A DNA stretch of 64,000 bases from positions 39,492 through 103,491 of the IMG/VR virus record IMGVR_UViG_3300045988_019695; one strand, given 5' to 3'. Every line of letters begins with the position of its first letter. Position 1 is the first letter of the stretch. The notes below the pieces were generated by a model. The model was not told the DNA's origin. It ran no database searches and was given only the letters and a program-made list of their open reading frames with translations. Positions 11,901 through 64,000 of this stretch are shown here, piece after piece. The position numbers and the translations under genes were made by a program. Source of the stretch: a virus.

Positions 11901-11902
11901 AA

Positions 11903-14386: not shown

Positions 14387-14389
14387 GTA

Positions 14390-16453: not shown

Positions 16454-16455
16454 AA

Positions 16456-16965: not shown

Positions 16966-16996
16966 TACTTAAATAATCTTTTAAGCCAGTTTATCT

Positions 16997-19900: not shown

Positions 19901-20794
19901 CCATACATGCTGATTAGGGGCTCTATTTATGCTATGCTCAGTCCATCCTGAACCGCCTCCAGGAGCTGCGCCTGCATTTGGAGTCTAGACGCTAGTAGTG
20001 TTCTTATCTACACATTTGAAGTAAACTTTATATCTACCACCATCTTTACCAGTACCAGAACCAGAAGAACCGCCATCAATTTTAATGACGCCATTTCCAT
20101 TTGGATCATACAGTGTATATTGATTACCATCAATCTGGAGTTTCTTAAGCTTGTTTATCTCAGCGTATTTAGTAAGCTCATTAGCAAGCTATTCTTTAGT
20201 GACAAGTTTGCTTGTATCAATGCCACCTGAAACGATAGATACTGTGAATTCTCCACCGTTCTTCTGCTTAAGAACAAGCTGACCATTAGCAGAATTATAG
20301 TTAAATGATTCAATGCTGTAGTCTTTACCGCCTGTTACCTTAATATTGTTTATCTCTGTTGTAAGATTATTGATCTTGTTCTGTATGTCATTCTTAATAG
20401 TATCAAGATCAGCCTTAAGAGCATACTTACTAAGATCTGCCGTATCATTCTTAATCTTAGCTACAAGCTCATTTACATATTCTATAGTAGCATATTTAGC
20501 TAATACATTGTCACCAAAGCCCAAATCGTAAAGAATGAGCTTAACCTTCTTATCAAGGTCTTCTTCAAGCTCGTCGAGCCTCTCTTCATGTTTATCTACC
20601 ATTGTCTTAATGAGATCAACAACATCCTGGTTAGCTTTATTATCCCACTTATCTTTATCTTCTTTAGATACTGGTTCGCTGTCAGCGTTCTTATTCATCA
20701 CCTTTGAAAGGAGAGACGAATACTACTGAGCAGCTTCTAAGTGACCATTATGATGACATGCACATTCATGGTCGCAATAATCAAAATCTACCAT
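16997..20794 (-). CDS. tail fibre / tail spike protein, 1,265 codons (TAG read as sense)
   Basis: Track ORFs 20189-20701, 18785-19273, 18458-18676, 17999-18232 and 17483-17947 are all in one frame. Every intervening triplet was checked: only TAG, about 40 in-frame in total across the gene. ATG 20794 (MVDFDYCDHECACHHNGH...), TAA at 16997. N-terminal coiled coil, Gly/Ser/Thr/Asn-rich beta-like remainder. Confidence 0.7.
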
Positions 20795-21038
20795 ATTAAT
20801 TTGTTTAAATTGTTAACAATTATAGTACTGTGGTGTCATTGAAGACCACGTCTAAAACGCCACAGTTATAGGTTAAATGAAATCGTTCTAATCTAGCGTA
20901 TTACTACGCAAGCCCTAGTATATTCCACCTAGGGGTGATAAAAGTCCTACCCTGGTACGCATTTGAAAAGAGGCGTGGTAGAATCTATTGTGCTAGGCGG
21001 GGCAGCGAACCCCGTCATGCTTTCATTAAGACCTAGCC
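20795..21038 (-). other. structured intergenic leader between the two fibre genes
   Basis: Minus-strand helices: cgggg/ccccg (20998-21014), ctacc...acgc/gcgt-ggtag (20947-20981), gcgta-GTAA-tacgc (20896-20909), actgtgg/ccacagt (20827-20866). Confidence 0.4.
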
Positions 21039-22334
21039 TTATGCAGCATCTTCTTGATGTTTAGCTTCAAGTGCTGCAATACGAGCTTCAAGTGCTGCAA
21101 TCTTTTCATAATATACAGACTTTGTAATAAACTCGCTATCATTAGTAAGCTGACTAACCTTTGTAGGAACAGTAGGAAGTTCAACCTTCTTAGCATACTC
21201 TTCAAGAGACTGATGTTCTGTAAGGTAATTACCTTTAGGCTGTTTTGTATCAATAGCAGAATTCAGTATACCAACCTGTTCATTAAGAGCTGTTGTAAGA
21301 ACATAATTACTAAGTGCTGTAGTATCAGCTTTAGCATTTATAAGGTTCTGGAGATACGATTCCTGACCATTAGCACGCTCAACTTCTGTTCTAATAGCTT
21401 CATTGATAGCTGTTTCTGCAGTTGTAGCTCTAGATGCTTCATTCTGAATAGCGAGAGCATTATCACCTTCAACTTCCTTAGCTCTAGCAGCCTCTGCTGC
21501 AATCTCAGCCTTATTCTATGCTTCTGCTGCCTTAGCTCTTGTAATCTCTTCATTAAGGGCAACTGTAGTAGCCTTAGTAGCAATAGCATCATTAATAGCT
21601 GTATGCAGATCATCATTACTATTAAGCTTATCTGCAATCTCCTTCAATGTATCATAAGCCTCTGGAGCTGCGCCAACTACATCAGCTATAGCTTTTCTGA
21701 ATGAACCTTCAGTTGTAGAGTCACCATTAATAATATCCACCTCTGCTTTGATCTCATTCTCCTTAGCAGTAGCACGTGTTACCTCAGCATTGAGGTTATC
21801 CTTAATTGTATTGTCGTCATTCTCACGCTTTGTAGCCTCAGCCTGTATGTCTGAAGAAAGAGCATTCTCACTAGCCTTAGCACGATTAACTTCAGCTGTA
21901 AGATCATTGCGAAGCTGAGTATCAGCGTTTACTCTTTCCTGCTTCTCTGTATCAATGTTCTACTGAAGTACATTATCTCTTTCATTTGACTCTATCTCCT
22001 TCTGATCAATCTTATCATCAAGAGTATTATCTCCCTAGATTCTATTAGCAGTCTCTTCCTCTGCCTTTTCTTGGAATACATCAAATCTATGATTTGTAGT
22101 ATCTCTAAAATTATGGATTTCATTTACAATCTCTTCAAGGGAATCATGATTATTATCAACATTGCCCTTAAGTTCATCAAACGCCTGGATTACTGCATTA
22201 GCATCCATGATATCACCACGTACGTACTCACCTGCATGCTCACCCATCAAGAGGTTAACTGTTCTTGTACCAACATCCTTGGCGCCATGTACCTATACAC
22301 CTACCAAAGGTGTCTTAATAAATTTCTTCTTCAT
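21039..22334 (-). CDS. coiled-coil fibre/collar protein (TAG read as sense)
   Basis: ATG 22334, TAA 21039. Includes track ORFs 22035-22250 and 21516-21740 in one frame with about 4 TAGs. Repetitive N-x-A-x-x-E-x-x-RA heptad-like sequence. The overlapping Leu-rich ORFs in other frames are shadows. Confidence 0.6.
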
Positions 22335-22365
22335 TATATATAATGTCTAATTTGATATGTGTCTA

Positions 22366-22399
22366 AACAGTAAAAGGGAACTACCTTTCGGTAATCCCC
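22366..22399 (-). terminator. intrinsic terminator after dUTPase gene
   Basis: Minus strand: GGGGATTACC-GAAA-GGTAGTTCCC (10 bp including 2 G-U) followed by TTTTACTGTTT. Confidence 0.6.
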
Positions 22400-22419
22400 T
22401 TTACGTAAGTGAATTAGGC

Positions 22420-22971
22420 CTATCCTTCACTTACCTCAGCACCTTCTTGTGCCGCCGCTGGCTCTGGTACGGACTCAACCTGTTCCTTAAGCTGTGACTG
22501 AGTTCCCGTAGCTGCGCTAGATTCATTCTCATTATCTGTGCCAGTAGAACCAAATCCACCCTCACCTCTCTCTGTAGGTGTAAGCTCTGAAACTTCTGTA
22601 ATTTCGTACTCTGGTACAGGAACTATGACTAACTGACAGAATCTCTCTCCCTTCTGATATACTGCAGGGATTGCATCTGTTGTTGCCTTCATGACAGCCA
22701 GGATCTCACCTCTGTAGTCACTGTCTATCACTCCGACATTATCTGTAAGCCATAATGATTTCTTCCAAATACTAGAGCGTGGTATAAGTAAACCAACATA
22801 TCCGGCAGGAATCTCAACTGCCAATCCTGTATGGTAAACCAACATTAGCTGATTTGCTTCATTAATAACTGTATCTATCTTAATGCAAGTCAAATCAATT
22901 CCTGCAGCACCTTTTGTGCCACGAATAGGAAGGATTGCTTTATCCTCAAGTCTCTTAAATTTTAACTCCAT
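22420..22971 (-). CDS. dut: dUTP diphosphatase with acidic C-terminal extension
   Basis: Trimeric dUTPase motifs AAGIDL, GLLIPRSS, GVIDSDYRGE, ERGEGGFGSTG. Confidence 0.85.
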   Translation of the reverse strand: MELKFKRLEDKAILPIRGTKGAAGIDLTCIKIDTVINEANQLMLVYHTGLAVEIPAGYVGLLIPRSSIWKKSLWLTDNVGVIDSDYRGEILAVMKATTDAIPAVYQKGERFCQLVIVPVPEYEITEVSELTPTERGEGGFGSTGTDNENESSAATGTQSQLKEQVESVPEPAAAQEGAEVSEG

Positions 22972-23040
22972 AGTATTTATAATATGTTTATTATTGTTAC
23001 CCCACTAGGATTCGAACCCAGACTAAACATAATCTTTTAA

Positions 23041-23469
23041 CTAGTCTATTGTAAGATTGTAGAAGTGAAGTTTTCTATGGCAATTTGCACATAGTACAAC
23101 ACATTTGTCAACTTCGTTTTTTATAGAAGCAACACCTTTGTCTCTACATTGGCTTCCTATGCTAAAAGACTTATCATGAAGATGATGAAAATCTAAGCAA
23201 GCTTGATCTTTTTCTCCACATATGATACAACCGTTAGATTTTAGTTGTCTCATATATTGTGTTAAAAATTTCTTATAAGATCTATGCTTTTTATATATAT
23301 CATTCTTGTTCTTTTTGTAATATTCCTCATAATATTTATGTTTGCATTCCTTGCATTGAGGTGATAGGCCATCAGGTTTGCTACTATTCTTCGCAAACTG
23401 ATCAAGTGGTTTTTCTATACCACATTTAGTGCATACTTTTGTTTTCATGTAAAAATATTTAATACGCAC
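23041..23469 (-). CDS. free-standing HNH endonuclease
   Basis: Cys-rich N-terminus (CTKCGIEK...CKECK) and CIICGEKDQACLDFHHLHDK...VVLCANCHRKLH. The ORF ends in TAG. Confidence 0.75.
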   Translation of the reverse strand: MRIKYFYMKTKVCTKCGIEKPLDQFAKNSSKPDGLSPQCKECKHKYYEEYYKKNKNDIYKKHRSYKKFLTQYMRQLKSNGCIICGEKDQACLDFHHLHDKSFSIGSQCRDKGVASIKNEVDKCVVLCANCHRKLHFYNLTID

Positions 23470-23491
23470 CTCTAACCTACGTATTTATTAG

Positions 23492-23564
23492 TAGCCCCAC
23501 TCCGTGTCCATCGGAGACCTACTGTTTTAGAGACAGTTGTGCACAGGCGGTACACCATAGGGCA
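23492..23564 (-). tRNA. amber suppressor tRNA, anticodon CUA (reads UAG)
   Basis: Manual cloverleaf: acceptor TGCCCTA/TGGGGCT (pos 1-72 is T-T), D stem GTGT/GCAC, perfect anticodon stem ACTGT/ACAGT with loop CT-CTA-AA, T stem CTCCG/CGGAG, discriminator A. Length 73 nt, no encoded CCA. Confidence 0.8.
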
Positions 23565-23570
23565 ATATAT

Positions 23571-23643
23571 GAGGACGCAGTGGAATCGAACCACTGTCTC
23601 TAAATCTTCAAATTTAGAAAGTTAACCATTACTACAACACCCT
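23571..23643 (-). tRNA. tRNA-like gene, Phe(GAA)-like with atypical anticodon loop
   Basis: Canonical T arm AGTGG-TTCGATT-CCACT and acceptor AGGGTGT/GCGTCCT. Anticodon stem CTAAA/TTTAG encloses 8 nt TTTGAAGA (or 6 bp plus a 6-nt loop) rather than 7. Confidence 0.55.
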
Positions 23644-23653
23644 CATTCTGTTG

Positions 23654-23725
23654 TTGCGGAGGACGGATTCGGACCGCCGACCTTTAGGTTATGAGCCTAA
23701 CGAGCCACCACTGCTCCACTCCGCG
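23654..23725 (-). tRNA. initiator-type tRNA-fMet (CAU)
   Basis: CGCGGAGTGGAGCAGTGGTGGCTCGTTAGGCTCATAACCTAAAGGTCGGCGGTCCGAATCCGTCCTCCGCAA. It has a C1-A72 mismatch, an A11-T24 pair and loop CT-CAT-AA, and closely parallels E. coli tRNA-fMet as I remember it. Confidence 0.8.
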
Positions 23726-23864
23726 ATAAGCACGTAACCTTTAGCTGGAGTTACGCAGAACCAGTATTGGGTCCATGTGTCAGCTTACCATGGTAGCCTT
23801 TTATTTATAGTGTACACACATGGATGCCACTTTATTAAACTATAAAATTTAATTCAAAAAGTCG

Positions 23865-23938
23865 GAGTCTATGCAGGAGTCGAACCTGCTAACTATTCCC
23901 TTTGTATCGGGCCGTCTTTACCGTTTGACTAATAGACT
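23865..23938 (-). tRNA. tRNA-like gene, isotype unresolved
   Basis: Perfect acceptor AGTCTAT/ATAGACT and T arm GCAGG-TTCGACT-CCTGC. The anticodon region GGCCC-GATACAAA-GGGAA gives only 3 Watson-Crick pairs and an 8-nt loop. Confidence 0.45.
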
Positions 23939-29172: not shown

Positions 29173-29184
29173 CTAGCTTGCATC

Positions 29185-29216
29185 GTAGCGCCCTCGTGGC
29201 GCTACCTTGCTTCTTT
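29185..29216 (+). terminator. intrinsic terminator
   Basis: gtagcgcc-ctcgt-ggcgctac followed by cttgcttcttt. Confidence 0.6.
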
Positions 29217-30035
29217 GACAAATGCAACTCGCTTCGCTCAGACATCAGCTTAAAGCTTGCTTAGAGCTTGCCAAAGAAAGGAGATGGCAAGATACACAGG
29301 TGAAATTTCAGATAGAACAGATAGATAATATAAAACATAATAAAGAAGTAATCCTTGATTGAAAATTCAATATATGATTGCACAATATGCTCATTAATTT
29401 AGGGTTATTTAATTGCTAAGCGTAGCACAATAAGCGTGGATACATATCACAGTCTGTGAAGATAGTGGTATGTTTATTTTAAACTCAGCTAGGGAGAGTC
29501 TAACATAATCACTGATGAGACCTAGGCGAAACTACACGTTGCATCATAGTGTAGTCTGATTAATTACTCAAAAGCGCAAATAGACCTCACAATACAATGG
29601 TCTGTGAAGATAGTTGTATTGAACCGTTATCTCATGCGGTATATAAACTAGGATGACGGAGCGCCTACGCTAACGTGATAAATCGTAGGCAGTAATGTGG
29701 CAAGACATGGTCCCAAGCCCATGCACTACAACACGTGCTTATGGTACTTGCAAAGCTATAAGAGGTTCGCTTGTAGGACACAGAGGGTTAAATAGTAGTA
29801 TTACATGTATGCTGAGAAGAGACGTACAGCCTGCTTGCAAGAGGTGCTTCGTGAAATGCAATCTCTTCTCTATGACAATCCGAAGAGACGGATAGTGGTT
29901 ATTATACGCTTACTGAAGTAAGAGGGTATACTATGCACGAATTCATATAAGGATATTGTGCTTGGCTATATAAAGTGCACACATAGCGACGGTTCGAGTC
30001 CAGTAACCACTCTACCCTATCATGTTTTTTAGTTA
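29217..30035 (+). ncRNA. ORF-free structured island 1 (candidate non-coding RNA; ends approximate)
   Basis: No credible ORF on either strand. Many helices (listed in findings). Closing helix AGTGGTTA (29894-29901) / TAACCACT (30005-30012), then catgtttttt at about 30022. Confidence 0.45.
29506..29562 (+). ncRNA. hammerhead ribozyme candidate (stem I open, type I topology)
   Basis: Stem I TAATCA (29506-11) / TGATTA (29557-62). Core CTGATGA (29512-18). Short stem II GAC-cta-GGC (29519-27). GAA (29528-30). Stem III ACTACAC (29531-37) / GTGTAGT (29549-55). Cleavage-site C at 29556. Confidence 0.6.
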
Positions 30036-30121
30036 CAATTTTAGTCCATTTGGCATGGGTACATTGGTTCGTGAGAATAGATGTACCATTTTGATGATTA
30101 TTAATCAAACTAATATATATT

Positions 30122-33091: not shown

Positions 33092-33165
33092 GGACTTGTA
33101 GCTCAGTAGGTTAGAGCAACAGACTCATAATCTGGAGGTCCTAGGTTCAAACCCTAGCTGGTCCA
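33092..33165 (+). tRNA. tRNA with CAU anticodon (elongator Met or Ile2)
   Basis: GGACTTGTAGCTCAGTAGGTTAGAGCAACAGACTCATAATCTGGAGGTCCTAGGTTCAAACCCTAGCTGGTCCA. Canonical D and T arms, loop CT-CAT-AA. Confidence 0.85.
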
Positions 33166-33236
33166 CAAAAGATGATTCCGTGAATCTTTAAAACCCGGAT
33201 AGTTAACATTTGTTGAATCTCTAATAAATTATCAAA

Positions 33237-35334: not shown

Positions 35335-35542
35335 ATATATTTTTAGCCATATTCTAAGCGTTCTGAGGCGTCATAGGAGATAAGTGGAGTAATTAACCAC
35401 GATGCTTCCGAAAGCTCCTTAGAACGCATCTAAAGTGGCTTAAATCGAATGTTCTGACTGATCATCAGGACATTTACAAAAAGAATGTACAGTGTGTATG
35501 AAATAATCTGGCAAGACCGCGGTTCGAATCCGCGCATGTCCA
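35335..35542 (+). ncRNA. candidate structured RNA ending in a tRNA-like acceptor/T-arm module
   Basis: Nested helices ttagcca/tggcttaa (35343-49 / 35436-43) and gcgttctgagg/ccttagaacgc (35358-68 / 35417-27), plus inner hairpins. 35469-35542 has acceptor GGACAT/ATGTCC and T arm CGCGG-TTCGAAT-CCGCG but no canonical anticodon arm. Confidence 0.4.
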
Positions 35543-35791
35543 CATCCCTAATAAAGGGTCTGCTAAGAACAAACAGACAACCTAAGTATGTTGTAAAACT
35601 GCTTATATGGGCATGTTTTGGCTTTGATTGTCAGAGGAGATAAATACGTTAAGCACTATACTATAAATTAAACGACAATGTAAACAACATTGTAGACTAT
35701 ACTAACGTAGCGTAAGTTTAGTCTAGGTGTTTCCTACCAAAGTGGAGAGAAGGATTTTGGGGTTCGACTCCCCATTTCCTTCCTATTAGTT

Positions 35792-36313
35792 ATGACAAAG
35801 GGATATAAAGCGATGATAAAGGACAGGTGTCCTTATGTCGTCAACCTAGCATTTAAATGGTGTACAGAGTTTGGAAGATTATCTAATATAGGTAAGAAAC
35901 CACACGAAAGAATTAAGTACGCTGTAAAAACGCGATGGATAGACCGTGTATATCAAGAAAATATAGCAATCTACAACACTGGACGAGGAATACCTCGAAC
36001 AGATGAGAAGGATGCTTCATTAAGAAAAGCTCTTGGGATACACGAGGGGTCTCAAAACTTTAATTTTGCAGACTCTATAAACTTAGAATGTATTAACAAG
36101 ACTTTCAATGCTGGAGAATACGCATTTTGGATATGGGTAAATAGCTGGGTAGTATGGTTTCAAGATAACTATAAATTCCTAGAGAACTATTACAAAATAT
36201 CATGTAAATGTGGCAACATGGCTCTATTTGATAATTATTTATCAGAAAAAGCTGGATTCCTAGATAATTATCTTGAAGATTTCTCTAAGTTTATTAAGAA
36301 AACATTTAATTAA
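35792..36313 (+). CDS. hypothetical protein (173 aa)
   Basis: Intact ORF. Confidence 0.55.
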   Translation: MTKGYKAMIKDRCPYVVNLAFKWCTEFGRLSNIGKKPHERIKYAVKTRWIDRVYQENIAIYNTGRGIPRTDEKDASLRKALGIHEGSQNFNFADSINLECINKTFNAGEYAFWIWVNSWVVWFQDNYKFLENYYKISCKCGNMALFDNYLSEKAGFLDNYLEDFSKFIKKTFN

Positions 36314-36770: not shown

Positions 36771-37328
36771 ATGGAGTATCAGCGTATCACTCAATCTGAA
36801 ATTGAGACCATAAAAGAAGCTCAAAAGGGAAATGAGCTAGCGTTTAATAAATTGTTTAACCGTTATAAAGAGTTTATCGACAATGTACTCTTTTATTACG
36901 TGAATGACATGGATGAAGCTAAAGATCTTACTAATGTAGTATTTCTTAAGGTTCACCAGAAACTCTCGACATTCACAGACTATTCGTCTTTTGGCGGATG
37001 GCTGAGAATTATAGCTAATAGAACAGCTATAGATTATCTACGAAAAGTAAAGGAAAAATCTATGGAATTAGGAGAAGATACAGGCCGACTACCTGTTGAA
37101 TTAACTAATTCTTCAGAAGAAGAAGATCTTGTCAATCTTCTTGAGTATGAATCTCTTCTAAAGGAGTTTGAAAAACTCCCAAAGAAGACACAGAAGATAT
37201 TTAATTTATTCTACGTAGAAGATCTGTCAGTTGATGAAATTAGCAAAGTGCTAAAAACTCCTACAGGCACTATAAAAGCTGCGTTAAGTCGCACTCGTAG
37301 GAAAATTAGAAATAACTTAAAAGTTTAA
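36771..37328 (+). CDS. ECF-type sigma-70 family factor
   Basis: Region 2: DLTNVVFLKVHQKL...FGGWLRIIANRTAIDYLRK. Region 4: LPKKTQKIFNLFYVEDLSVDEISKVLKTPTGTIKAALSRTRRKIRN. Confidence 0.8.
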   Translation: MEYQRITQSEIETIKEAQKGNELAFNKLFNRYKEFIDNVLFYYVNDMDEAKDLTNVVFLKVHQKLSTFTDYSSFGGWLRIIANRTAIDYLRKVKEKSMELGEDTGRLPVELTNSSEEEDLVNLLEYESLLKEFEKLPKKTQKIFNLFYVEDLSVDEISKVLKTPTGTIKAALSRTRRKIRNNLKV

Positions 37329-39411: not shown

Positions 39412-39813
39412 ATGAAAAAATTAGTAATTACGTTGCTAGGAGCAGCATTTCTTGTTGTTGGCATGAATATTGCTGATCTTAAGAATGTTCCCCTTCCAAC
39501 GACAGTGCAAACAGTAGCAGCATCTACTGTACAGCAACCAATGGATCATTTATTTGATCAAGTGAAACATGCTAATCCTGATACAGTGCGTGATACCGTT
39601 AAGGTAGAAGTGCCTGTACCTTGTAAACATAAACAGTTGCCTGCAAAGACAATTGTTAAGCACACCATAATTAAGAAGACAGATACGTCGTATGTACCAC
39701 TTCTGTATATTATGGAACCTGGAGAAAAGGTCGACTCCACTAATCATGACTTTACCATTCGTAAGGGAGAGCTCCGTGATTATATTCAAATCGCCTCTAA
39801 TGTACACAAGTAA
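39412..39813 (+). CDS. secreted/membrane-anchored protein
   Basis: N-terminal MKKLVITLLGAAFLVVGMNIA signal-like segment. Confidence 0.55.
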   Translation: MKKLVITLLGAAFLVVGMNIADLKNVPLPTTVQTVAASTVQQPMDHLFDQVKHANPDTVRDTVKVEVPVPCKHKQLPAKTIVKHTIIKKTDTSYVPLLYIMEPGEKVDSTNHDFTIRKGELRDYIQIASNVHK

Positions 39814-41916
39814 ACATAAGAACCCTGTGTACTATAATTAGGTAAGTACATATAGTAGATCCCATTAGTCTACGTACGAACATTGACTGGATCCGAGAAT
39901 ATGTTAACCCTGTCTTGCAGGGCGAGATCACTCAAAAGGTAGGATGAAATGTATCAAACATTGAAACAGTTTGATATAGGTAGGAGAAGCGTTGTATCAA
40001 CTCCTAGAGATTACGCAGCTGGACTTGTGAGAACCGTCTGGAGACAAGCTGGATGAGGCTGTGTAATCTAAAAACGCATAAGTCCCAAGAAGGGCATAAT
40101 GAACCGTATCGGAATTGTATGTGATAATACTAAACATACACGAACGTTACACGAGATGAACTATATTGGTCCCCAGTAGGTGAACAGAATTGCATACATG
40201 GTATGGTGCATGATGCTGGAAGAACCGAGGATATCCCAAACAATATAGAAGTATTATTAGCCGTAGGTAGTGTTTCTAGTGTCCAAAGCTAGTATAAAGG
40301 CCGAAAAACTACATCAATACTGTGGGAGTAATACCACACAGAGTAAACTAAATGAGTTTGCTGACTATACCAAAACCTTACTGTTCGATTCAGTACAACT
40401 CCGTTGAAGGGGTGCCAGGGATGGGGTAGAAGTGTCTGATTGTGACCGCTAGGCTTTTCTTGTTTATGCGGTATATAAAAGTAAAACAAGCGCAAGGGTT
40501 GGGCAGCCCCTTAATCGAAGCTCTACGGGAGTATCGTACGCGGGTGAAGATCGCGGTGAAAATCTATTCCAGTTGTATTATTAGGATGTTAGGCAATCCG
40601 AACTTACAGCCAATTTCCATGAAAATTAAATCGTTCATGAGATTATGATCGATGACTTCGTTACAGTCAAAGAAAATTGATGGAGCGCTATCCTAGAATA
40701 GTAAATAGCAAAGCAAGGTAGAAAGTTGATTCGATATATGTCCATCCAGGACCGTTTGACCTCCACTTTCATCCAAAACAATCTAGACTAATAGTTTATT
40801 TGTACTATAATATACAATATTATATAGTCTCTACAGAGTAGTAAGCTGGTATATTATGTATGCGTATGTTGTATGCAAGAGATATAAACTATGAAAATTT
40901 AGAAAGTTTAAAATTAACATGTCTAACAAAAATTGATGTCCCTTTATAGAGTGTATCTTACGTTGTAAGTAAGGACTTGAGGTAAAGAAATCGAGTGCCA
41001 ACCGATATGCCAACCATGCTAAAGTATACTGCGCAACAGTATATGTAAACATAAAGGTTCAAAGCAATACAGGAAATTGATGGGCAGCTTATATCTATGT
41101 TGTAAAACGACTGTGTATATTATATGTGTATACTGTCTCTATACATGTATATTACGTTATAAGTGGGTGACAAGATGAAATGTATGGGTTGAATTCCCAA
41201 TATTCGTGCACTATAAATAGGAGGTAGTAATACCGGTACAGAAAAATTGCAAACATCAGCAAAGATGAAAAAGCCGTAAAGTCTGTGATGGGTTTGATCC
41301 TGAGACATTCCGATAACCAACCGCTGGGTACATGCCATAAGCCGAGTACCGCAGTAAGGAGACCTAGCTGACAGTCGCTTCTAAGTTAGCAGTAGAGACA
41401 ATCTGCTTTAATAACAATCATGTAGTAAGATCTTGTAAGTATAGTAAGGGAAATACGACCGAGATTCTACATATTTTCGTGGGTTATAAGAATTCTAAGA
41501 TTCTATGAGTGTTAGTTGCTCTGCAAAATTTCACCAACGAAGATTAGAATAGTTAAGTTAGAAAAAACGTGAACAAAATAGCAGAAAATAGTTCAGCATT
41601 TGATTATGCAAAGAAAGCATTCAAAGCTTTAGACGACGGGCCTGGATAATCCAGTAAATGTTAATTGTATCTCATGTATACAATTCCTGTCACAAGCCTA
41701 TTACCCTATTGTTGTAATAGGAAGAGTGTGACTAAGTCTGTAACAAAGCGTCTACAATAGTAGAACTTTCTTTAGGAAACTAAGTAAGCAAAATAGTAAC
41801 CGAGTATCTTCGTATCAGCGTTGCTTTATTCAATAAACAACGGCAACGGTGTAGCCAAAATACACCATATTTAAAAATCATATCGTTAGTTAATCAATAA
41901 CGATATCAAAAAGGAT
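39814..41916 (+). ncRNA. ORF-free structured island 3 (2.1 kb; candidate large non-coding RNA(s); strand and ends uncertain)
   Basis: Only four short overlapping 68-73-aa track ORFs with implausible sequence. Numerous local and long-range helices, e.g. 39908-22, 39952-76, 40117-39, 40406-16 with 40502-12, and 40459-65 with 40484-90. Confidence 0.45.
41802..41818 (+). promoter_or_regulatory. fifth copy of the AGTATCTTCGTATCA motif, about 100 nt upstream of gene 41917
   Basis: gagtatcttcgtatcag matches the 35.0-35.3 kb copies in 16 of 17 positions. Confidence 0.5.
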
Positions 41917-42510
41917 ATGATTATGTCAGAAATTAATGTAAACATCGTGGAAACAACTATTAAGTCAAATCGTACCCCACTGAGCATGCTCGGTGCTAAA
42001 ATGTTTGGTCAGGACGTATTTACTCCTCAGACCCGTATGTTCAACCCAGATCATGACAAGGTTTTGGAGCAGGCTAAGCAGAGCTCTAATGTAAATCTTG
42101 TTCTCAATCGTTCGCCTCGCCGTTTTGCGATCGGTTATATCACGATTGAGTCTATGGCAACCAAGCAGAATGCAATCGGTGATGTCGTTTGTCGTCTCAA
42201 TGAGGGCACCGAACATCAGATTGATATCCCTCTCGGTGAGAATAGCGCCAAGTTTGGTGAGACTACCGAGGAGGCAGTTCAGAACGCTCTTAAGGACAAG
42301 AACTCTAAGGCCGTGTTCTCAGATCCTAAGGATTTGAGTGGTATTCTTAACGACCTTAACCGTGGCGAGATTGCTCGTCTCGATGCAATCATTGAGCAGG
42401 CTCAGAAGGCTAAGGCTCAGTGTCTGTCTGCTATTGCAGCAAATGAGAAGGTTGTCTCTGACTATGAGCGTCAGAAGGCAGATTCAAAACCAGCTGATAA
42501 GATCGCATAA
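41917..42510 (+). CDS. highly expressed protein of unknown function
   Basis: 197-aa ORF (alternative ATG at 41923), strong codon bias. Confidence 0.6.
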   Translation: MIMSEINVNIVETTIKSNRTPLSMLGAKMFGQDVFTPQTRMFNPDHDKVLEQAKQSSNVNLVLNRSPRRFAIGYITIESMATKQNAIGDVVCRLNEGTEHQIDIPLGENSAKFGETTEEAVQNALKDKNSKAVFSDPKDLSGILNDLNRGEIARLDAIIEQAQKAKAQCLSAIAANEKVVSDYERQKADSKPADKIA

Positions 42511-43220: not shown

Positions 43221-43295
43221 AAGGGTATCCTTAAAAGTTCTCTGCGGAGAATAGGTAATCCGCCCTGCGGGGTAGGATTACCAATGGATACCCTT
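43221..43295 (+). terminator. compound nested hairpin followed by a T-rich tract
   Basis: Outer aagggtatcc/ggataccctt (43221-30 / 43286-95), inner ggtaatcc/ggattacc (43254-61 / 43275-82), then ttttatcctttatt. Confidence 0.5.
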
Positions 43296-43378
43296 TTATC
43301 CTTTATTACAGTAATATGTAGTATAGGAGCTAGGTAAATGGCTGATTCAAGTAAATTGTTTAATTTTAATCAAACTAT

Positions 43379-43927
43379 ATGAATAAGAAATCAATTAAAT
43401 TGAACTCAGCAAATATTATTACAATTCGTAAGAATATTGATATTACTATCAATAAGTATTGGCGAATTATTCGAGCAGAGAACCTGATGTCTAAGAAAGC
43501 AATTGCAGCAAAGCAGGGTTCTGGCTTAGATCTCAAGAGCTTGTATAATCAGATTGTACAACTTAGTGAGAAGCGTATTATGATTAAGGGTATTTTGGTA
43601 GCTCTTAATACAGGTACTACTACATTCTCTTACGAGGATTTTAAGAAGACAAACAACTATAGTATTTTCGCAGCATGTGAAGCGAAGGAGGCTATAGCTC
43701 AGCTCAAGATGATCAAGACACTTGATCCATCAACTAAGGCAAAGAAGGGATTGAAGGCTATGCCTAAGCGTGAGGTATTCTCATCAGCTAAGATTGCACA
43801 GCTTATTCACGAGCAGCAGCTACTAGCAAATAAGTTTGACGCTAATCTCGAGAAGTTTAATAATGAGACTTCTATTGAGATTAAGGATACTATTGCAGAT
43901 AAATTCGAGATGGATCTCGCAGTTTAA
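43379..43927 (+). CDS. hypothetical protein (182 aa)
   Basis: Intact ORF. Confidence 0.55.
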   Translation: MNKKSIKLNSANIITIRKNIDITINKYWRIIRAENLMSKKAIAAKQGSGLDLKSLYNQIVQLSEKRIMIKGILVALNTGTTTFSYEDFKKTNNYSIFAACEAKEAIAQLKMIKTLDPSTKAKKGLKAMPKREVFSSAKIAQLIHEQQLLANKFDANLEKFNNETSIEIKDTIADKFEMDLAV

Positions 43928-44052
43928 ATGCTATAGGTTCGAGACAAATACAAGGGTCGCCGAAAGGAGTAAGATCGAGGCTTACACGAACCACAAATAA
44001 GGAATCCCTTGCCTTAAAAATAACATTATTAACACATTAAATTATCAAGATT

Positions 44053-45039
44053 ATGTCAAAGAAGAATAAGAAGAACCTCAAGAAGGTTCAGGCTAAGATA
44101 GGAAATACACCAGTTAAGGCTGAGGCAGCTAAGAAGGAAGAGTCTAATGCTGCTAATAAGACAATAGAGAACATTAAGAAACGTCGTGCTGCTGATGCAG
44201 AGAAGGCTAAGAAGAACGCCGAACTCAAGGCAGCTAAGAAGAAGGCTAAGGCCGAGAAGGAGGAGGCTAAATATGCTGCCTCTAAGGCTCGCGCAGAGGC
44301 CCGTCAGGCGCGTAAAAAGAGCATCATGGATAAGTTAATCGACTCTAAGAAGATAAAGGCTTCAGGGCCTGTTAAAATCACTTTGGAGGAGCGTTTGAAG
44401 AAGCAGGAAGAGCGTCGTAATGTCGCTATGGCTCGTCATATCGCATCAATTACCCGTCGATGCAAGCGAATGCATCTCAATGATGCCGACACCAAGAAAG
44501 TGGTAGACATCGCGAAGAAACAGTGGGACAACGCTACTGTATATAATATAACAGTTGTATGCGACTCCGTTCTGAAGAAGAAGGGAGAGCTTGAGAAGCT
44601 GGTTAAAGACTGCGGAATTAAGTCCGCGTGTATCACCAATTCTACAGCATTCTTTAAGGATGTACCAGCAAACGTGGTAGAGAAGCTGCGTGACCTTGTG
44701 GGTAACGCTACATTCTATCAGTATCGTTCTGATAGCAAGTCTCCATTTGAGGAGGCTGGTATAGACGTATCTGCAAGTAACCACAACAAGCATAAGAAGG
44801 GAGGAGATCCTCATACTATCGAGTGCTCTAAGAATGCTAGTGTTAACTTCTACAATCTCCGCAGAGCTAAGAAAAAGGCTAAGGAGACGCTTGAGAAAAA
44901 TACGTATACATTCCGTCATGGTAGTAAGGCGGAAGGACGCAAGCTTCGTCGTGGGCTCAAAGTTAAGGCTAAGGCTGTAAATAAAAAGCCTACTCAGGTC
45001 AAGGAAGTTAAACAAAAGTCAGTTAAACAGGCAGCTTAA
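44053..45039 (+). CDS. Lys/Ala-rich basic protein (possible DNA-binding)
   Basis: 328-aa ORF; the N-terminal 100 aa are about 40 percent K/A/E/R; Lys-rich C-terminus. Confidence 0.55.
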   Translation: MSKKNKKNLKKVQAKIGNTPVKAEAAKKEESNAANKTIENIKKRRAADAEKAKKNAELKAAKKKAKAEKEEAKYAASKARAEARQARKKSIMDKLIDSKKIKASGPVKITLEERLKKQEERRNVAMARHIASITRRCKRMHLNDADTKKVVDIAKKQWDNATVYNITVVCDSVLKKKGELEKLVKDCGIKSACITNSTAFFKDVPANVVEKLRDLVGNATFYQYRSDSKSPFEEAGIDVSASNHNKHKKGGDPHTIECSKNASVNFYNLRRAKKKAKETLEKNTYTFRHGSKAEGRKLRRGLKVKAKAVNKKPTQVKEVKQKSVKQAA

Positions 45040-56746: not shown

Positions 56747-59700
56747 TTATGGCTGGAAACTTCCACCTGAATCAAATGATCCGCCACCAAAATCCTATCC
56801 GGAATCAAACGAATCTCCACCAAAAGAATCGTTGTCATTATAATCGTTAGGCATTACAGGTTCTCCTGAAGAACTTCCTGTAGAATCGTTCCCGAACAAA
56901 TGCAAATACCAATATTTGTTTCTGTAATAATTCTATTTAGATCTTAATGTATTATAGTTAGCATCTTCGTACAAATTACTAAATGGAACCATCTTCATTG
57001 CATCTCTAAACCATCTGCTAGACCCTTTATACGCACCAGACTTTACGGTGTCAGTAGGATTGTGACCAGTAAGACCCATTGCGTCAAGCATGTAAGTGAA
57101 TCCTGTTCCAAAGTCATTCCATACAGACTACAACGTTGTAATAGATCCAACAAAGTCAGCAACAGTTGTTGGGTCAAGGTTTGTACCTCTAGCCTCTGCA
57201 AGACGGAGTGATATCAAGTATAGATACTGTATCCACCACGACTTATCATTATCAGCTTTCATCTTTAAGAAGATAGAGGCCAATGTAGCTGCTACGCAGA
57301 TAGCTATATCGGCAGACACTGCTTTAACGCCTTCTATTTCAAGCTGTGTTATACCTTTTAACTTTTCTCTCTTTTCGTTGTATTCCTATTTCTTTTCTTG
57401 GTCTCTAGACAGCAACGCACGTAATCCGTAAATCCAATTAGTTACGTATCTTCTTGATAAATTTGCTATAGATGTATAATGTCCTCTTTCAATCTCTCCT
57501 GTTTCATAATTATAGTATCCGTAGCTCTAAGCTTCTTCTGTTGTCTTAGGATTCTTTACAGGAACTCCGTTTTCATCTAATTCCTTTACAATATAATCGT
57601 TTGCATTTTGCATTCTTTCATATATATTGCCTACGATAAAGTTACGCATCATAAACATAATGGCAGTATACAGATTTTGTCTAGCTTTAGATACTTCTGT
57701 TGCCGGCATAACACCATTATAAAAGGCAGTTCTTTGAGCAATTTTGTTCTTTACATTCTTAGCTACCTTATTGTTTAGGTATTTTGCAAACGCCTTATTT
57801 ACGGTTGGTAAATAATCACCAGGCTCCCAATCATATGCATCGTATAATGTTGTATGTAAGTCAGAATATACAGCCTTAGCCTACTTTTTTGTATACCCAG
57901 AGTCAGTAAATGCTTTTATAAGTTGATTACGAGTATAGAATCCAGGCTTAACTCCAGCATATGATGTATCTTCAAAAAGTCTAGTGTGATGATAGAACGA
58001 CATCATTACTATAGAATTATTCATATAATCACCGAGAGTATAACCTCCCATCATAATGTATTTAAGACAAAATCTTCTGAACCAACCTTTATGTAAGCCT
58101 TCAAATATTTCAGAATTATTCTTACTTATTTGATTCATCTACATTAGAGCTCCTTCTTTTGTTGTTGGCTAAGCTTTTCCCAATCCTCTAAAATTATTTA
58201 CAATTGTTTTCGGATTTAGCAATTTTCCTAAAGCCCATCTAAAGTCTTTCATAGTAAGATATTTACCTACGAGAGAATCCTTAAATATCTGTAAGTTTGC
58301 ATCTAATGCACCAACAGTCATAGAAGCTGTGTTAAGACCAAGCATATGGATAGAACCATATCTTTTTGCTCTAGATATCAAAGCTCTTGCAGTATCGCTC
58401 TTCTCGTTATTCTTAGTAAGACCTGATACTACATTCTTACCATAGAACTATGTTTCAAGAAGTGTATTTATTGCCTCTTCGCTTCTCTGGCTACTATACT
58501 TATCCATTTTCCTGAAATGTTTGTAAACATTTCCTGATCTAGAGCTTTTATATTTATCTTCTCTATATTCTGGATTAAGCTGTTTTTGTATAGCAAGAAT
58601 TTCAGGAAGCAATTCCATTTTTCCTTCATAATTCTTAGCCATATCTACAAACTGTATAACATTGCTACAGATAGATGAGCTTATATATTCTGGATTATCT
58701 AATCTCTTTACAAATCTAATAGGAACAGTACTTTCGTCTTCTCCGCTAGGTGTAACTCTTTGTTTTACGCCCTTTACTTCGACATCTGTATCACTAGGCA
58801 TTATGCTTACCATAGATTTGCAGATATATCCAAATGTATCTTTAGCTGAATTAGGTCCTTTAGCTACTCTTGATAATAGCATGGCTGTAGTACCTTCTAT
58901 CTAAGGAAGCGCATTGTTATAACCAGACTTAATGGCTGGTATTTTCTCATACATCTACTTCATTGTGCTAGTAAGCATATCATAAAGCGCTCTAATATCT
59001 GAGTTCTAATTTATCTCCTAGTCGAAGTATTTGTCTTTATATTTATCTGTAAGCTAATATCCTGGTTCTTTTCTTTTAAAATCATATCTATCGTCATAAA
59101 TTCTATTTGGAGTAGCGTTACTTCTCTTAGAGAATCTTCCAATAGGTTTTAATATAATAGAATTGTATGTATATCCATTATAAACGAACGTACTACTCTT
59201 TGGTGTTATTTCATAGAAGCAATCAAGAGGCTACGGACCTTTCTTAGTATTCTTAAAGAAGAATCTATTGTCAATAAGATATCTTAAATCAGCATCAGAA
59301 AACGTTGTTATATCTTGACCAAAGAATTGATTAAGCTCTCCATTCTTAGCTCTATAAAGATATTTATCTCTAAAGAAGTCTAATTTACTTTTGTTTAAAC
59401 CAGGCTACATTGCAAGTCTATAATTAAAGTACTTTCTAAAATCAGACTTTGTTCCATTTTTACCAGAATCCTCTATATCTTGCTCAATCTGCTATGCATT
59501 AGCAAAGAACGCTTCTGAATCGTGTGGTAATCTAGAGAAATCTTTAGATATACTTCTGTTGTCTTTTGTCAAAGTAAGAAGACCACTCTACAGATACTTT
59601 AATATAGGATCGTTATACTAAGACTGATCAACATTTGCAAGCTTATATAACAAAGGATTTATAGCTACTGTAGAATTAAGTCTTATAAACTAATCTCTCT

Positions 59701-62227
59701 TTACAGGATCTGTAATTGCGTTAAGCTCTTGTACAAAAGCAGCATTATCCTAATCGTAATCAGTCTAATCAGATACCCATTGATTGAATGATCTTAACTC
59801 TATAGCCATTCTATACTTATCGTCTTCCTTCTTTTCTCCATTAGGATAGAATGGATTAGATAACTACTCAGCTTCTTCTTTTGCCAGCAAATAAGCTTTC
59901 TACTACTCTGGAGATAGATCTTCGTAATGTACTGTTCCGTCTTTTCTTGTAGCCTGTTTTGCATAATATCTAAGGTCCTCGTCTATTCTTTGTTTTTCTC
60001 TTATAGTGTCTGGAGATAAACCATGACCATGAGGATTAGCAGGTATAGGATCATTCTTGGTTTTAGGATAATATATAGGAACCGAACGCATCTCTTGGTA
60101 GTATTTTCTAGTGTACTACTTTATTCTTCTACCATCATCAAATGCATCCATCTCGTCAAGATAATCATAATATTTCGGTCTCTACCAACCAGATGAAGTA
60201 TACTTCCATCTTTCCTAATATACACTACAACCAGTCTTCTTGTCTATAAGTTCTCCAGTATCTTCGTCCTATTCGTAGCCATATTTTTCCATTAAGCGCT
60301 CCTGCTCTTTGCGCCTATCCTGTTCGTACTATCCTTGGTTGTACTCGGTTCTAAAATTACCTGTAGCTTTACCATCTCTGTCAAATTCCATCAAAACCAT
60401 CTCTGGATTTCCCGGAACAAGCTTACTCATAGTTTTCCAAGCATTACGTCTAAGTGCATCTATTTTGTGACCAATATTGTTTACGAACACCTGCCTGTCG
60501 TAGTCAATATCATTAACTTTGTTATACAATATTCTAAGTATAGGAGAACTAGATCTTCCATACATTCCTGCCCACATCTCTAGCCAGTTAATGTCTCCAT
60601 ACATAGCCTGTCTAAGAAGCCAGTCCTCTGCAACAATCTTAGCATTCTCTATATTACCAAGGCCCATATTATCATCTATGTATTGGTCTACAATATTAGT
60701 TGTAAGCGCATGTAACGCATTTCTATACAATACTGAAATATCCTACATAGATGCATTTATCTAATCTATATGAGTCTTTAATATAGCAGGGAAGCTACCG
60801 AACACCTTAGCTGAATTTATTTGATTTAACACCTCTTTAAAGAAGCCTATAGAGTTCTTGTCTATATCTATGAGCTATTGAGCTGTAATACCTTTAAAGT
60901 CATTCTTTCTAGCGTTCTCTAAGAACTTATATATAGAGCCATCTGTTATATTTCCATTTTGGTCCATATATCCAATTCTATCTACAACGTAATTTACAAA
61001 TGTACAGATAGCATCATCATCAGACTGTCTCTACATTTTTTGCATAGTCTAGAATAGCTTGTCCTATATCTTTATCTATGATGGTGTTTTTGAAACAATA
61101 TGGTCATAGGTATCAAATAGGTCCTACAATCTCTGTATAGCCTCATCTTTGCTAAGTGTATTATCAGCCATAAGCTAGAACTTAGCTTTATTTTCAAGTC
61201 TTACTTTATTAAATTCTGCTGATACTTTAACCTAGTTAATATCTATATTAAGCAAGAATGACTACGCCAAATACTCGTGTAACATTTCTTTATTAGATTC
61301 ATCTATAACCAAGTCTTTAAATGCGTCTCTAACCTACGTATTAAACTGCTCCCATATATCAGCTGCCTTTGTACGCTCAGCAATATCATTAGCTTTATTA
61401 ACAAGTATATCTACAAGCTTTTCCTCTGCTTCTGTTATATTTTTTATCTTGTACTGACTCATAATGTCAGATAGAGCCTTTTGTACCATCTGTGAGTTCT
61501 AGAACATATCAAGATAATGATGGCAGATCTCATGAGATTCAGTGTTAAGTTTTGCAGAACTTCTTCCAAATGCTACTTTAATCACATTTCCTATAGCGCT
61601 AAGCTTATTAGATATGTACTAGCCAGAAGCTTTTGCAATATCTTTTAATGATGTATTACGTATATAGTCTACGAACTATATCTGCAAATCTTTAGAAGAT
61701 AAGAGTATATTGCCTTCCTTATCTACTGATTTTGTAAGACCAAATGATTTCTCCAATCTATCTGCCAAAGTAGTGTGCAAACGTTCGTATTCTGCCTAAT
61801 TCCAGGCCTCTGTAGCCTCTCTAACAGTCTTGCCTTCCTACTACTAGGCAAGGATAAAATTATCCTTTCTAGAGCCATAATTTTGAGCCATAGAGCTAAA
61901 TGATTTAGCGTCAAACTATAATGCTCCATTATAGTTATCTAAGTCATCTATTGTAGGCTCTACTCTATCCTATGTCCAGTCATAGTGATCTTCTATGAAC
62001 TTTGACGTAAATATAGTAGCCTTCTCCAATATGGCTTTTTCTCTACTACCTCCATTACGCTGTAATAAATCTTTATACAGTGCGGAGTCTTTACCATTTA
62101 AATCCTTATCTAAAGGATATCCGTTGTTCTATGATAAGGCATAATAGGCAGCCTCTCGGCTACCTAAAATACCCTCATATTCATTTAACAACGCTTCGTT
62201 TTCTTTATTTCTTAACAAACACGTCAT
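56747..62227 (-). CDS. giant virion-associated protein candidate, 1,826 codons (TAG read as sense)
   Basis: ATG 62227, TAA 56747. Six track ORFs between 57527 and 60730 share this frame. I checked the frame triplets for 56747-57529, 58861-60331 and 60721-62227: only TAG interrupts, dozens of times. The short gaps 57710-57880, 58139-58168 and 58382-58447 were not checked triplet by triplet. Confidence 0.7.
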
Positions 62228-62232
62228 AATAA

Positions 62233-64000
62233 TTATTTATTACAGTCGTCCTATCTTCTCTTTCCGAGCTCTTTAAGATCGTCTTTTATTTCTTGTTCGT
62301 TCTTTACCTTGTAGTCATTTTTAGAGAATGTCTTCTAGTATACAGCCTTTATAGCATTAGCAGCCTTCAAAGCTTTATCGTATCCTACATAACCTTCTCT
62401 ATCAACCCACTATCCGTTTTTATTAACTTTATAGTTCTATATATTTCTAGTACCAACTCCAGCAAAAGATTTTGTTAATACAGGTGTGTCTTCTACTTCG
62501 AATTTACCTGTAGATTGATTATACTAATACCAGCTTTCTGTGTTCAAGTCGTATACATGTACAGGTTTACCCTATTTAATACCAACTTGTACAGCCATAT
62601 TAGTACCACCTTCTACAGCTTTCTGTGAGCTAGTTATATTAGCTATAGCAAATACTCCGTCAGACTTATCTACCTGATAAAAGTCTCTTGCAAGTAATTC
62701 TCCAGCAAGTGTATAAGGAAGCTCTCTTCCAGTTAACTGCTTTATCTATTCTCTTGCATAGTTAGATTGTTCATGAGTAATTGAGAAAGGTTTAACATTT
62801 TTATCCCTAAGAGTTTTAGACATATTCTAATTATCTATAGGTCTAAAATGATTTATCTTTGTTAAACCAAACTACCTACCTATAACATCCCAATATGTAT
62901 CACCACCATAAGCTCCACCAGAGTTCATTGTATAATCTTGCGGATTATTATTATGCTTTTGCTATGTTACCTATTTTTCGTCTGTTCTAGTAAATGCGTT
63001 ATCCTTTAATGTTCCATCTTCGTTGTAGTAGTTAAGCATCTTATCACTATTATGATGCGCATAACAATACATACAACTAGACGCACAATTACTATTGTAT
63101 CTAAGGATATCAACCTTACCACCATAACAAGTACAAAGCTATCTTTGTCTATTATTTGCTTCAGCCTTATCTTCTATATGTGTTCCAAGAATATTATTTA
63201 TCTACTGTACTGACAAACATCCTTGTTTGCTTATGCCTGGTATAATACCTGGTTCTGCACACGTAGATAATTTTACTCCATATTTATTTGCTATCTTAAG
63301 CATCTCTTCGGATATTCTTTTAACCTTTTCTGGACTTGCATTAGGTTTAAATTCTCCATTAGCAAGTTTTTCGTATCCATTCTTTTCATAATCATATCCA
63401 AGATTCTTCATAAAGATTGATGTTGTACGGTAATAATCCATTACAGAGAATTTAACGTTCTTTATGCCAAATTCAGATGCTCTTTTTATAAGCTATTCTA
63501 CATCTGGAATCTATGTAACACCTGGTACAATTGGATCGATTCTAAGTGTAACCATTTTTGGATCAAGGCCTTGTTTTATAAACTTGCCAACACGTTCAAT
63601 CATATCTTGCCACTTCATTACACCAGGCTCCCACTTTGTTCCGCCAAGAGTAGTTATACTAAAATGTATAATCTTAGGCTTTTGTATACTAAGTATTCTT
63701 CTCATTGGAAGCCCATCGTGCTTTGTGATAATGTATAAAGCATCCATGTCATTAGCTGTAAGAGTATTACCACGATAATCTTGTACTGTTGTTTTTCCAC
63801 TAAAGAAATCTTCAAGCTATTTAGCAAAGAATGCTGGGTCTGTCTTTTCTGAAGCTACAGCTATTCTAGGATGAGTATCGCTACCAGTAAACGGATGTAA
63901 TGCAAGAATTTCTTCGTTTGTAAGAATAGTATTAGGAGAACTTATTGTCTTCTAAGCCTATTCATAAGAAACATTATGAGTATCCTTGTGTTCTGTACTA
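62233..64000 (-). CDS. DUF1848-like domain fused to a Rossmann/SLOG-like domain; N-terminus outside the window (TAG read as sense)
   Basis: Frame checked over 62221-63540 and 63721-64000: only TAGs; TAA at 62233. Motifs: ITTLGGTKWEPGV, TLRIDPIVPGVT, STCAEPG, LCTCYGGKVDILRYNSNCASSCMYCYAH, then NSGGAYGGDTYWDVIGR...GGTNMAVQVGIK. Confidence 0.55.

Follow-up and report, generated by a model that had tools for sequence, protein, structure and literature searches.

RESULTS

A long ORF-free island in a Burzaovirus genome

The virus record IMGVR_UViG_3300045988_019695 contains a 2,103-nt stretch in which no substantial open reading frame (ORF) is found, and this stretch, referred to here as the island, is the subject of our analysis. 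We surveyed a 64-kb window of the record, which derives from a Burzaovirus (Suoliviridae, Oafivirinae; a "delta" crAss-like phage). The island (39814-41916) begins right after ORF 39412-39813, which ends in TAA, and reaches to the ATG that opens ORF 41917-42510. Together with its flanks, it is 92% identical at the DNA level to cr124_1 and 90% identical to cr7_1. It belongs to a plus-strand block (26-56.7 kb) that uses the standard genetic code.

An earlier reading of the letters of this DNA (the sequence-only reading) had proposed that the island is a candidate for one or more large noncoding RNAs, possibly new. As that reading stated, the island is the longest noncoding stretch of the window (the runner-up is 949 nt) and holds only short ORFs (≤73 aa, with a longest stop-to-stop frame of 86 codons). 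Its middle is also AT-rich as described (30.2% G+C at 40790-41160). Two other compositional statements did not hold. The genome had been put at about 95% coding, whereas the crude coding fraction of the window is 84%, and the first kilobase of the island had been called G+C-rich, whereas it contains 40.8% G+C compared with 43.6% and 40.3% in the flanking 2 kb.

The island does not encode protein

IMG/VR and GenBank provided 72 full copies of the island, which we narrowed down to 18 representatives of diverse Oafivirinae that are 47-93% identical. No reading frame was shared among these 18 relatives under the standard code, with TAG readthrough, or with TGA readthrough, and the longest open frames varied between them in position, strand, and length. 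The sequence-only reading had named a conserved ORF under another genetic code as a finding that would speak against an RNA. When readthrough of TAG, TGA, and TAA was allowed singly and in pairs on both strands, only scattered frames emerged, and none was common to the relatives. Column entropy was equal across the three codon positions, and the indel lengths (220/91/88 modulo 3) were read as not being multiples of three.

Two specific candidates for a gene were rejected. If the first position of the invariant loop motif TGAGAACCGT (window position 40028) is called B, minus-strand ORFs of 110-200 codons recur between approximately B+30 and B+560. They are annotated as hypothetical proteins in two records, cr7_1 gp52 (6378-6860 of locus L001) and Bohxovirus ECCNAKDA_00150 (4068-4574 of locus L005). 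The frame and extent of these ORFs vary, their translations align only where the nucleotides are conserved, and they display neither codon periodicity nor an excess of third-position changes. The hypothetical proteins opposite the RNA in these two records are therefore probably false gene calls, and the database entries need correction. A small ORF at the invariant block ACACGAGAUGAA, 2-8 codons long in Oafivirinae, has no conserved start codon. Collectively, these results demonstrate that the island does not encode protein.

We give next to no weight to the idea that the island hides coding sequence, through another genetic code or frameshifting, or that it is a self-splicing intron with a decayed endonuclease gene. 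Hidden coding would fit with the TAG readthrough of late genes in the same phage and with the recurrence of the two-record minus-strand ORFs, but it is contradicted by the variable frames, the third-position data, and the indels described above. Delta-group crAss-like phages do carry group I introns (PMC7886860), yet no host gene is interrupted. The ORF before the island terminates in TAA at 39813, the one after it is supplied with a ribosome-binding site and an ATG (41917) of its own, and the two are complete, separate genes in all subfamilies of Suoliviridae. The element is also universal in the family rather than sporadic. Searches with the Intron_gpI, Intron_gpII, and group-II-D1D4 models gave no match at E ≤10, although this test is weaker than the search for an interrupted gene, as divergent introns may escape the models.

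Compensatory changes maintain approximately 40 helices along the island

The sequence-only reading had described the island as helix-dense, and all of the helices it listed are present at their coordinates. However, the folding energy of the single sequence was not clearly better than that of shuffled sequences (z = -0.9 for 39840-40839 and -2.2 for 40840-41800). Visual helix density is thus no evidence in itself, and the case for structure is comparative.

RNAalifold predicted 258 pairs on the alignment of the 18 representatives, with approximately 40 helices over 39840-41770 showing compensatory changes in several pairs. Quarter by quarter, the island had 86-90% of its cells paired, compared with 31-48% when the 3' partners were slid by 1-3 columns, and cells with compensatory changes were three to five times as numerous as in the slid controls. 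At 39840-40320 (MAFFT alignment), 95.2% of cells were paired compared with 35-48% for slid partners, 30 of 43 pairs showed compensatory changes, and none of 500 shuffles scored as high. The corresponding count at 40250-40800 (MAFFT alignment) was 39 of 58 pairs, and 41340-41800 was 86.5% paired compared with 33-46% for slid controls. Compensatory pairing exceeded all 500 shuffles and all slid controls, as is generally asked of a structured RNA. These data establish that the base pairs of the island are under selection.

MAFFT alignments across the divergent subfamilies were too poor for structure prediction, and covariance models were used for two cores. Model R1 represents the 5' core (39886-40054; 156 positions, 34 pairs). 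It matched 53 loci with 44-154 bits, once per locus and always on the strand of the flanking genes (+). In the resulting alignment of 52 distinct sequences, 31 of the 34 pairs showed compensatory changes, and 87.5% of cells were paired compared with 36-45% for slid partners. In Bearivirinae and Uncouvirinae, R1 also matched where the gap begins (E = 7e-7 to 3e-4). Model R2 represents the 3' core (40923-41059; 17 pairs) and matched 38 loci in Oafivirinae, Loutivirinae, and Boorivirinae, with a single + strand match in each, always 960-1220 nt downstream of R1. Here, 16 of the 17 pairs were compensatory among 37 distinct sequences, with 96.9% of cells paired compared with 22-67% for slid partners. 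A weak R2 match (E = 0.012) was present in cr6_1 (Bearivirinae), 1126 nt past the R1 match. Neither model had a further match anywhere in the 64-kb window.

The helices picked out by eye fared differently in this comparison. The pairings ccctg/caggg, tatcaaac/gtttgata, gtatgt/acatac, and cttgttt/aaacaag are each backed by covariation. The CTTAC hairpin of the AT-rich section also exists, but not with the 3-nt loop assigned to it; the partner is the second GTAAG (40969-73), and the loop is 7 nt. The 10-bp long-range pairing of 40406-16 with 40502-12 is present in the window sequence only. Within its TGCC/GGCA half, which is the half tested in register, the four pairs are kept in 7-16 of the 18 relatives, and the pairing competes with a local hairpin (40396-400/40410-14) that does covary.

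The signal points to an RNA read from the plus strand

Among pairs predicted on both strands, 113 were G-U and 55 were A-C when read on the + strand. Consistent with this bias, the folding energy of the alignment was -263 kcal/mol on the + strand compared with -217 kcal/mol on the - strand. The + strand signal agrees with the orientation of the surrounding genes.

The sequence-only reading had offered an origin or packaging region as an alternative. A replication origin or packaging site acting as DNA, with hairpins that are incidental or form in single-stranded DNA, would suit the position of the island within the replication-gene block and its AT-rich center, but we consider it very improbable. 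Approximately 40 helices are kept by compensatory changes, with G-U exceptions twice as frequent as A-C. There are no iterons or direct repeats, as the only repeats in the island are one 14-nt two-copy match and two trivial micro-repeats, and the GC-skew minimum (turn) of the window lies near 25-26 kb, away from the island. With no shared coding frame, covariation along its whole length, and no Rfam match (see Discussion), the island is, with high confidence, a structured RNA gene or genes, which bears out the central proposal of the sequence-only reading.

The island is conserved in place and size across Suoliviridae

Each of the five Suoliviridae subfamilies has a syntenic ORF-free gap of 1.9-2.5 kb, and the transcribed strand of the gap carries no annotated gene. 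The gap measures 2.0-2.2 kb in Oafivirinae (cr7_1, cr124_1, cr131_1, cr130_1, Bohxovirus, and cr273_1) and at the same locus in Dulem virus 42, whose record has no family assignment. It measures 2.1 kb in Loutivirinae (cr53_1) and Bearivirinae (cr6_1), 2.5 kb in Boorivirinae (cr50_1 and cr55_1), and 1.9 and 2.2 kb in the Uncouvirinae cr118_1 and cr115_1, respectively. The gene order is an extracytoplasmic function (ECF) sigma factor gene, genes for ~125-aa, ~500-aa, and ~130-aa proteins, the gap, and two genes for ~190-aa proteins; Loutivirinae-type genomes contain an additional ~140-aa ORF just before the gap.

Within Oafivirinae, a dozen invariant sequence blocks keep their order and spacing over ~1.7 kb. 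These RNA blocks are invariant between genera in which identity between the flanking proteins is only 24-36%. When used in nhmmer, a profile of the Oafivirinae alignment found two regions in the other subfamilies, a 5' domain followed by a 3' domain in the same order.

Outside the family, crAss001 (Steigviridae) has no gap of comparable size and no significant R1 or R2 match. Ro60 proteins usually pair with Y RNAs, and we observed that a ~900-nt unannotated gap in crAss001 (95964-96870; 43285-44191 of locus L176) adjoins a gene encoding a TROVE-domain (Ro60-like) protein. In 185,579 bacterial and archaeal genomes, the pattern of the 5' core occurred mainly on ~100-kb phage-like contigs binned into metagenome-assembled genomes (MAGs). 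The scan also returned one 4-kb contig that the R1 model confirmed and one chance match that it did not. This distribution is not that of a bacterial gene. As far as tested, the RNA is confined to one phage family. Two RNA-bearing contigs of ~101 kb, JAJWOH010000001 (locus L166) and JAJXAL010000002 (locus L171), were binned into MAGs of Segatella copri, which may hint at the host or may be a binning artifact.

One transcript is favored over two

We then considered whether the island represents one RNA or several. Two or more structured RNAs could lie side by side, for example at ~39840-40690 and ~40820-41770, each with its own ends and functions. The two halves are separated by an AT-rich, poorly conserved spacer that contains a sigma-70-like hexamer pair (40784-40811), and the two cores can be modeled separately. 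The closest relatives, cr124_1 and cr7_1, have, however, lost the hexamer pair, with CATGAT in place of TATAAT, and promoter-like sites are at chance level (11 found compared with 10.1 expected). A search for a + strand terminator-like site between the halves found none, and the order of the halves, their spacing (960-1220 nt), and the total length are kept in every subfamily. Because the hexamers are not kept within the genus, promoter-like sites are at chance, and no + strand terminator-like site lies between the halves, one transcript is favored; separate RNAs are the less likely arrangement, though one that deserves to be kept in view.

The island might also be a giant structured 5' leader acting in cis on the transcription or translation of the downstream operon (genes 41917 and 42516). 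It is on the same strand as these genes, with no convincing terminator between the RNA and gene 41917, and a conserved hairpin lies over the ribosome-binding site and ATG of that gene. A leader of this kind would nevertheless be far larger than those familiar to us; we know of no cis-regulatory leader of ~1.9 kb with ~40 conserved helices. In addition, the most conserved cores lie 0.9-2 kb away from the start codon, and the least conserved part of the island is the ~100 nt right before the hairpin (about 41770-41875). We regard a leader as improbable. The hairpin itself, which is kept in all subfamilies examined, probably serves the translational control of gene 41917 rather than forming part of the RNA.

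Taken together, the data lead us to favor, with a probability of roughly 55%, a reading in which the island is the gene for a single multi-domain structured RNA of ~1.9 kb that is a fixed feature of Suoliviridae and would act as a scaffold. Several points weigh against this reading. The long-range RNAalifold pairings that join the 5' and 3' halves have no covariation support, as their 3 compensatory pairs match the level of the slid controls, and the poorly conserved spacer between the halves would suit two RNAs. The folding energy of the single sequence is, as noted, unremarkable. The RNA is predicted from sequence comparison, its ends are approximate, and the flanking proteins, which are the candidate partners, have no relatives in Pfam, PHROG, or PDB.

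Architecture of the structured region

The features of the structured region are listed in Table 1. Its 5' limit is the first hairpin, which is also the first conserved helix and begins 33 nt past the upstream stop codon. The variants of the outer stem read directly from the alignment are GUAC/GUAC, GCAC/GUGC, GCGC/GCGC, and GUUCC/GGAAC. In the 5' core, one hairpin carries a UGAAA(A) loop and another the invariant loop UGAGAACCGUYUGGNGA. A downstream partner for the loop of hairpin 3 was sought, and its complements fell at inconsistent positions, probably by chance.

Within the hairpin cluster, hairpin 40379-95 has the loop UUCGAUU and is T-arm-like, its sequence GUUCGAUUC having been likened to a tRNA T-arm by reading. 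A second T-loop-like hairpin (UUGAAUU) is present at 41186-41200. Neither this hairpin nor 40379-40395 (G-UUCGAUU-C) was called as a tRNA. Beyond the 3' core, nhmmer matches continue through 41127-41225 in three Loutivirinae-type relatives (L135, L101, and L055), and conservation fades past ~41770. Loutivirinae also contain a look-alike of the motif at 41878-41920 (…AUCAAAAAGGGAUAU…ACACGAUG; L055, ~3660-3710) inside the RNA, just past the 5' core, where it is followed by 6-10 codons (MTKQGQYGS*, MLKQGQRVLG*).

The overall architecture consists of many 4-8-bp hairpins, conserved 7-nt or UGAAA-type loops, a hairpin with a T-arm sequence, and two invariant cores. Such a build would be typical of compact RNAs with tertiary structure and not of antisense or sponge RNAs.

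TABLE 1 Elements of the structured region, with positions in the 64-kb window
Element	Position	Strand	Composition	Support
Whole structured region	39840-41770 (approximate ends)	+	~1.9 kb; conserved blocks in fixed order across genera	~40 helices
First hairpin	39846-39877	+	Outer stem GUAC/GUAC; inner stem 39856-60/39868-72; conserved loop CYCAUUA	Inner stem: 5/5 pairs covary (own count, global alignment), 4/5 in tool count
5' core domain	39886-40054	+	Closing stem around one hairpin, then three hairpins	R1 model
Hairpin module	40106-40161	+	Stem 40116-22/40134-40, then invariant block ACACGAGNUGAA	7/7 stem pairs covary
Two-tier hairpin	40266-40303	+	Around conserved UAGUGUU	Inner stem: 5/5 pairs covary, 98.9% of cells paired
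Hairpin cluster	40320-40422	+	40320-39, 40340-58, 40379-95, 40396-414	5-7 covarying pairs each
Closed domain	40450-40566	+	Closing stem 40450-58/40558-66; holds 40459-69/40481-90 (cttgttt/aaacaag), 40496-99/40507-10, 40539-42/40552-55	Covariation
AT-rich spacer	~40690-40820		Poorly conserved	
Hairpin opening the 3' half	40821-40860	+	Stem 40821-28/40853-60	7/8 pairs covary
3' core domain	40923-41059	+	AACAAAAAUUGAUGUCCC; stem 40943-47/40982-86 around hairpin 40957-61/40969-73; invariant GAGUGCCAACCG; hairpin 41024-30/41038-44	R2 model; hairpin 41024-30/41038-44: 7/7 pairs covary
Further blocks	41127-41330	+	GAUGGGCAGC upstream, then GUGGGUGACAA, AUUCGUGCACUAUAAAUA, GCCGUAG, UUCGAUAA; hairpins 41127-45, 41182-203, 41280-307	
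3' hairpin cluster	41596-41769	+	Around conserved GCAUUCAAAGCUUU	2-6 covarying pairs per helix
Hairpin over the start of the next gene	41878-41920	+	Encloses ribosome-binding site and ATG (41917)	9 pairs, 96% paired, 6 covarying

Neighboring genes and other features of the window

The ECF-type sigma factor is encoded by ORF 36771-37328 (+), three genes 5' of the island (four in Loutivirinae-type genomes), and is found in every Suoliviridae genome examined. Among the ten neighboring proteins, the Pfam matches were to sigma-70/ECF domains and to two sub-threshold helix-turn-helix domains, all in this ORF. The other neighbors had no relatives in Pfam, PHROG, or PDB, and the homologs of the 504-aa neighbor are all close and all unannotated. 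No reverse transcriptase was detected among the ten proteins using Pfam.

Elsewhere in the window, the second-longest ORF-free gap (29173-30121; 949 nt) contains a RAGATH-1 hammerhead ribozyme at 29482-29561 (+), which scored 71.8 bits against a threshold of 56.3. A permuted tmRNA at 35453-35806 (+) with the tag peptide DNVNNIVDYTNVA was called by both Rfam and ARAGORN, and a tmRNA is likewise annotated in cr7_1, cr124_1, cr131_1, and cr115_1. The minus-strand late-gene blocks (3600-23500 and 56750-64000) have long ORFs (≤1829 codons) only under TAG readthrough. None of the tRNA-like genes at 23571-23938 shows a CTA anticodon, and one of them has an odd 8-nt anticodon loop (ARAGORN output 'tgaa'). 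Two long ORFs on opposite strands, 5171-6331 (-; 386 aa) and 5285-6358 (+; 357 aa), overlap along nearly their whole length.

DISCUSSION

Here, we describe a 1.9-2.5-kb gap that is shared by all five subfamilies of Suoliviridae and whose base pairs, rather than any protein, are maintained by selection. If it is the gene for a single RNA, as we favor, we propose the following course. The RNA would be transcribed rightward (+ strand), with or just ahead of the early/middle genes of the replication module, from a start no more than ~30 nt past the upstream stop codon. It would then fold into a compact body of many short hairpins with conserved loops (UGAAA-type and T-loop-like) and act through this fold, most likely by scaffolding an assembly needed in infection, either an RNA-protein particle or one made of RNA only. 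It would not be expected to serve as a messenger, an intron, a repeat array, or a DNA site. The assignment of this specific role, which draws on analogy, is tentative. We give slightly less than even odds to a broader proposal, in which one 1.9-kb molecule is a hitherto unknown RNA machine that Suoliviridae cannot do without, whether a ribozyme, an RNA-protein particle built with the orphan proteins encoded on either side, or a body of self-assembling RNA.

Large structured RNAs are uncommon, and new RNA biochemistry or architecture came to light with each of RNase P, group II introns, OLE, GOLLD, and ROOL. If the whole 1.9 kb is one molecule, we know of no larger structured RNA in bacteria or bacterial viruses apart from those of the ribosome, and it would be two to three times as long as the largest non-ribosomal, non-intron RNA classes. 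Its conservation exceeds that of the surrounding proteins, and it is universal in an abundant human gut virus family, to which 13-18% of the reads that map to putative virus genomes in samples of the human gut belong (PMC7886860). A natural RNA of 1.9 kb would be a concrete, clonable molecule for structural work. It would also provide a handle on how crAss-like phages act in Bacteroidota cells, which is obscure as most of their genes are orphans.

We found no published description of this RNA in openly searchable full text. Regions with no recognizable genes were noted by Yutin et al. in genomes of crAss-like phages, chiefly those of the Zeta group, without being interpreted as RNA (PMC7886860). 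The large virus screen of Fremin et al. contains motifs of 29-151 nt only, and single hairpins of the island may be among them (PMC10690425).

The sequence-only reading had matched the island to no known family, and the search of Rfam 15 agreed. No family, GOLLD, ROOL, OLE, and HEARO included, reached its gathering threshold in the island of the window or in eight relatives. At E ≤10, just four matches appeared; they were at chance level, involved small unrelated families, and all stayed below a third to two-thirds of the gathering scores. Because every membership test for known families failed, we rate the RNA as a new class, within a broad category of large ornate RNAs with unassigned function that already exists.

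Comparison with individual classes leads to the same assignment. Among well-known structured RNAs of bacteria, only the rRNAs (1.5-2.9 kb) are of similar length, and they too consist of many short helices with conserved loops. The island resembles them in these respects, but it has no match to small- or large-subunit rRNA models at E ≤10 and no conserved block recognizable as rRNA. Group I and group II introns are multi-domain RNAs of 0.3-2.5 kb. The island is similar in its domains and size range, and such introns do occur in crAss-like phages; in contrast to them, it interrupts no gene, has no intron-encoded protein, and occupies one site in every member of the family. The noncoding RNA arrays associated with UG27 reverse transcriptases in Bacteroidota phages (PMC9226505; bioRxiv 10.64898/2026.09.22.753630) likewise are long noncoding stretches with conserved hairpins in gut Bacteroidota phages. 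The island differs in having no reverse transcriptase or accessory genes among its ten neighbors, and unlike these arrays or CRISPR arrays, it has no repeated units, its domains being unique and ordered.

The closest parallels are large RNAs of bacteria and phages, which the island exceeds in size more than twofold. GOLLD and ROOL, which are often phage- or prophage-borne, have a size of ~0.6-0.8 kb. They share with the island a phage origin, a lack of ORFs, many conserved helices, a function that was unassigned at discovery, and a size far above that of typical regulatory RNAs. The island matches neither Rfam model, is ~1.9 kb rather than roughly 0.6-0.8 kb, and is confined to one phage family as far as tested. 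The usual adjacency to tRNA genes is also missing, as the nearest tRNA (33092-33166) is 6.6 kb away and the tmRNA at 35453-35806 is not adjacent. Both GOLLD and ROOL are large ornate RNAs that form RNA-only multimeric cages (PMC12286853).

The likeness of the island to OLE is one of genomic placement, since both are large structured RNAs in an operon between small conserved genes of unassigned function. OLE RNA (~600 nt) has a Firmicute host and acts with proteins encoded alongside it. The island has no Rfam match, resides in a phage rather than a Firmicute, is three times longer, and has neighbors unrelated to known families. Its OLE-like placement suggests, by analogy, an RNA-protein particle. 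We tentatively favor a scaffold or particle role because the tight, family-wide linkage of the RNA to small orphan genes on both sides recalls OLE and its partner proteins, and its phage setting recalls GOLLD and ROOL.

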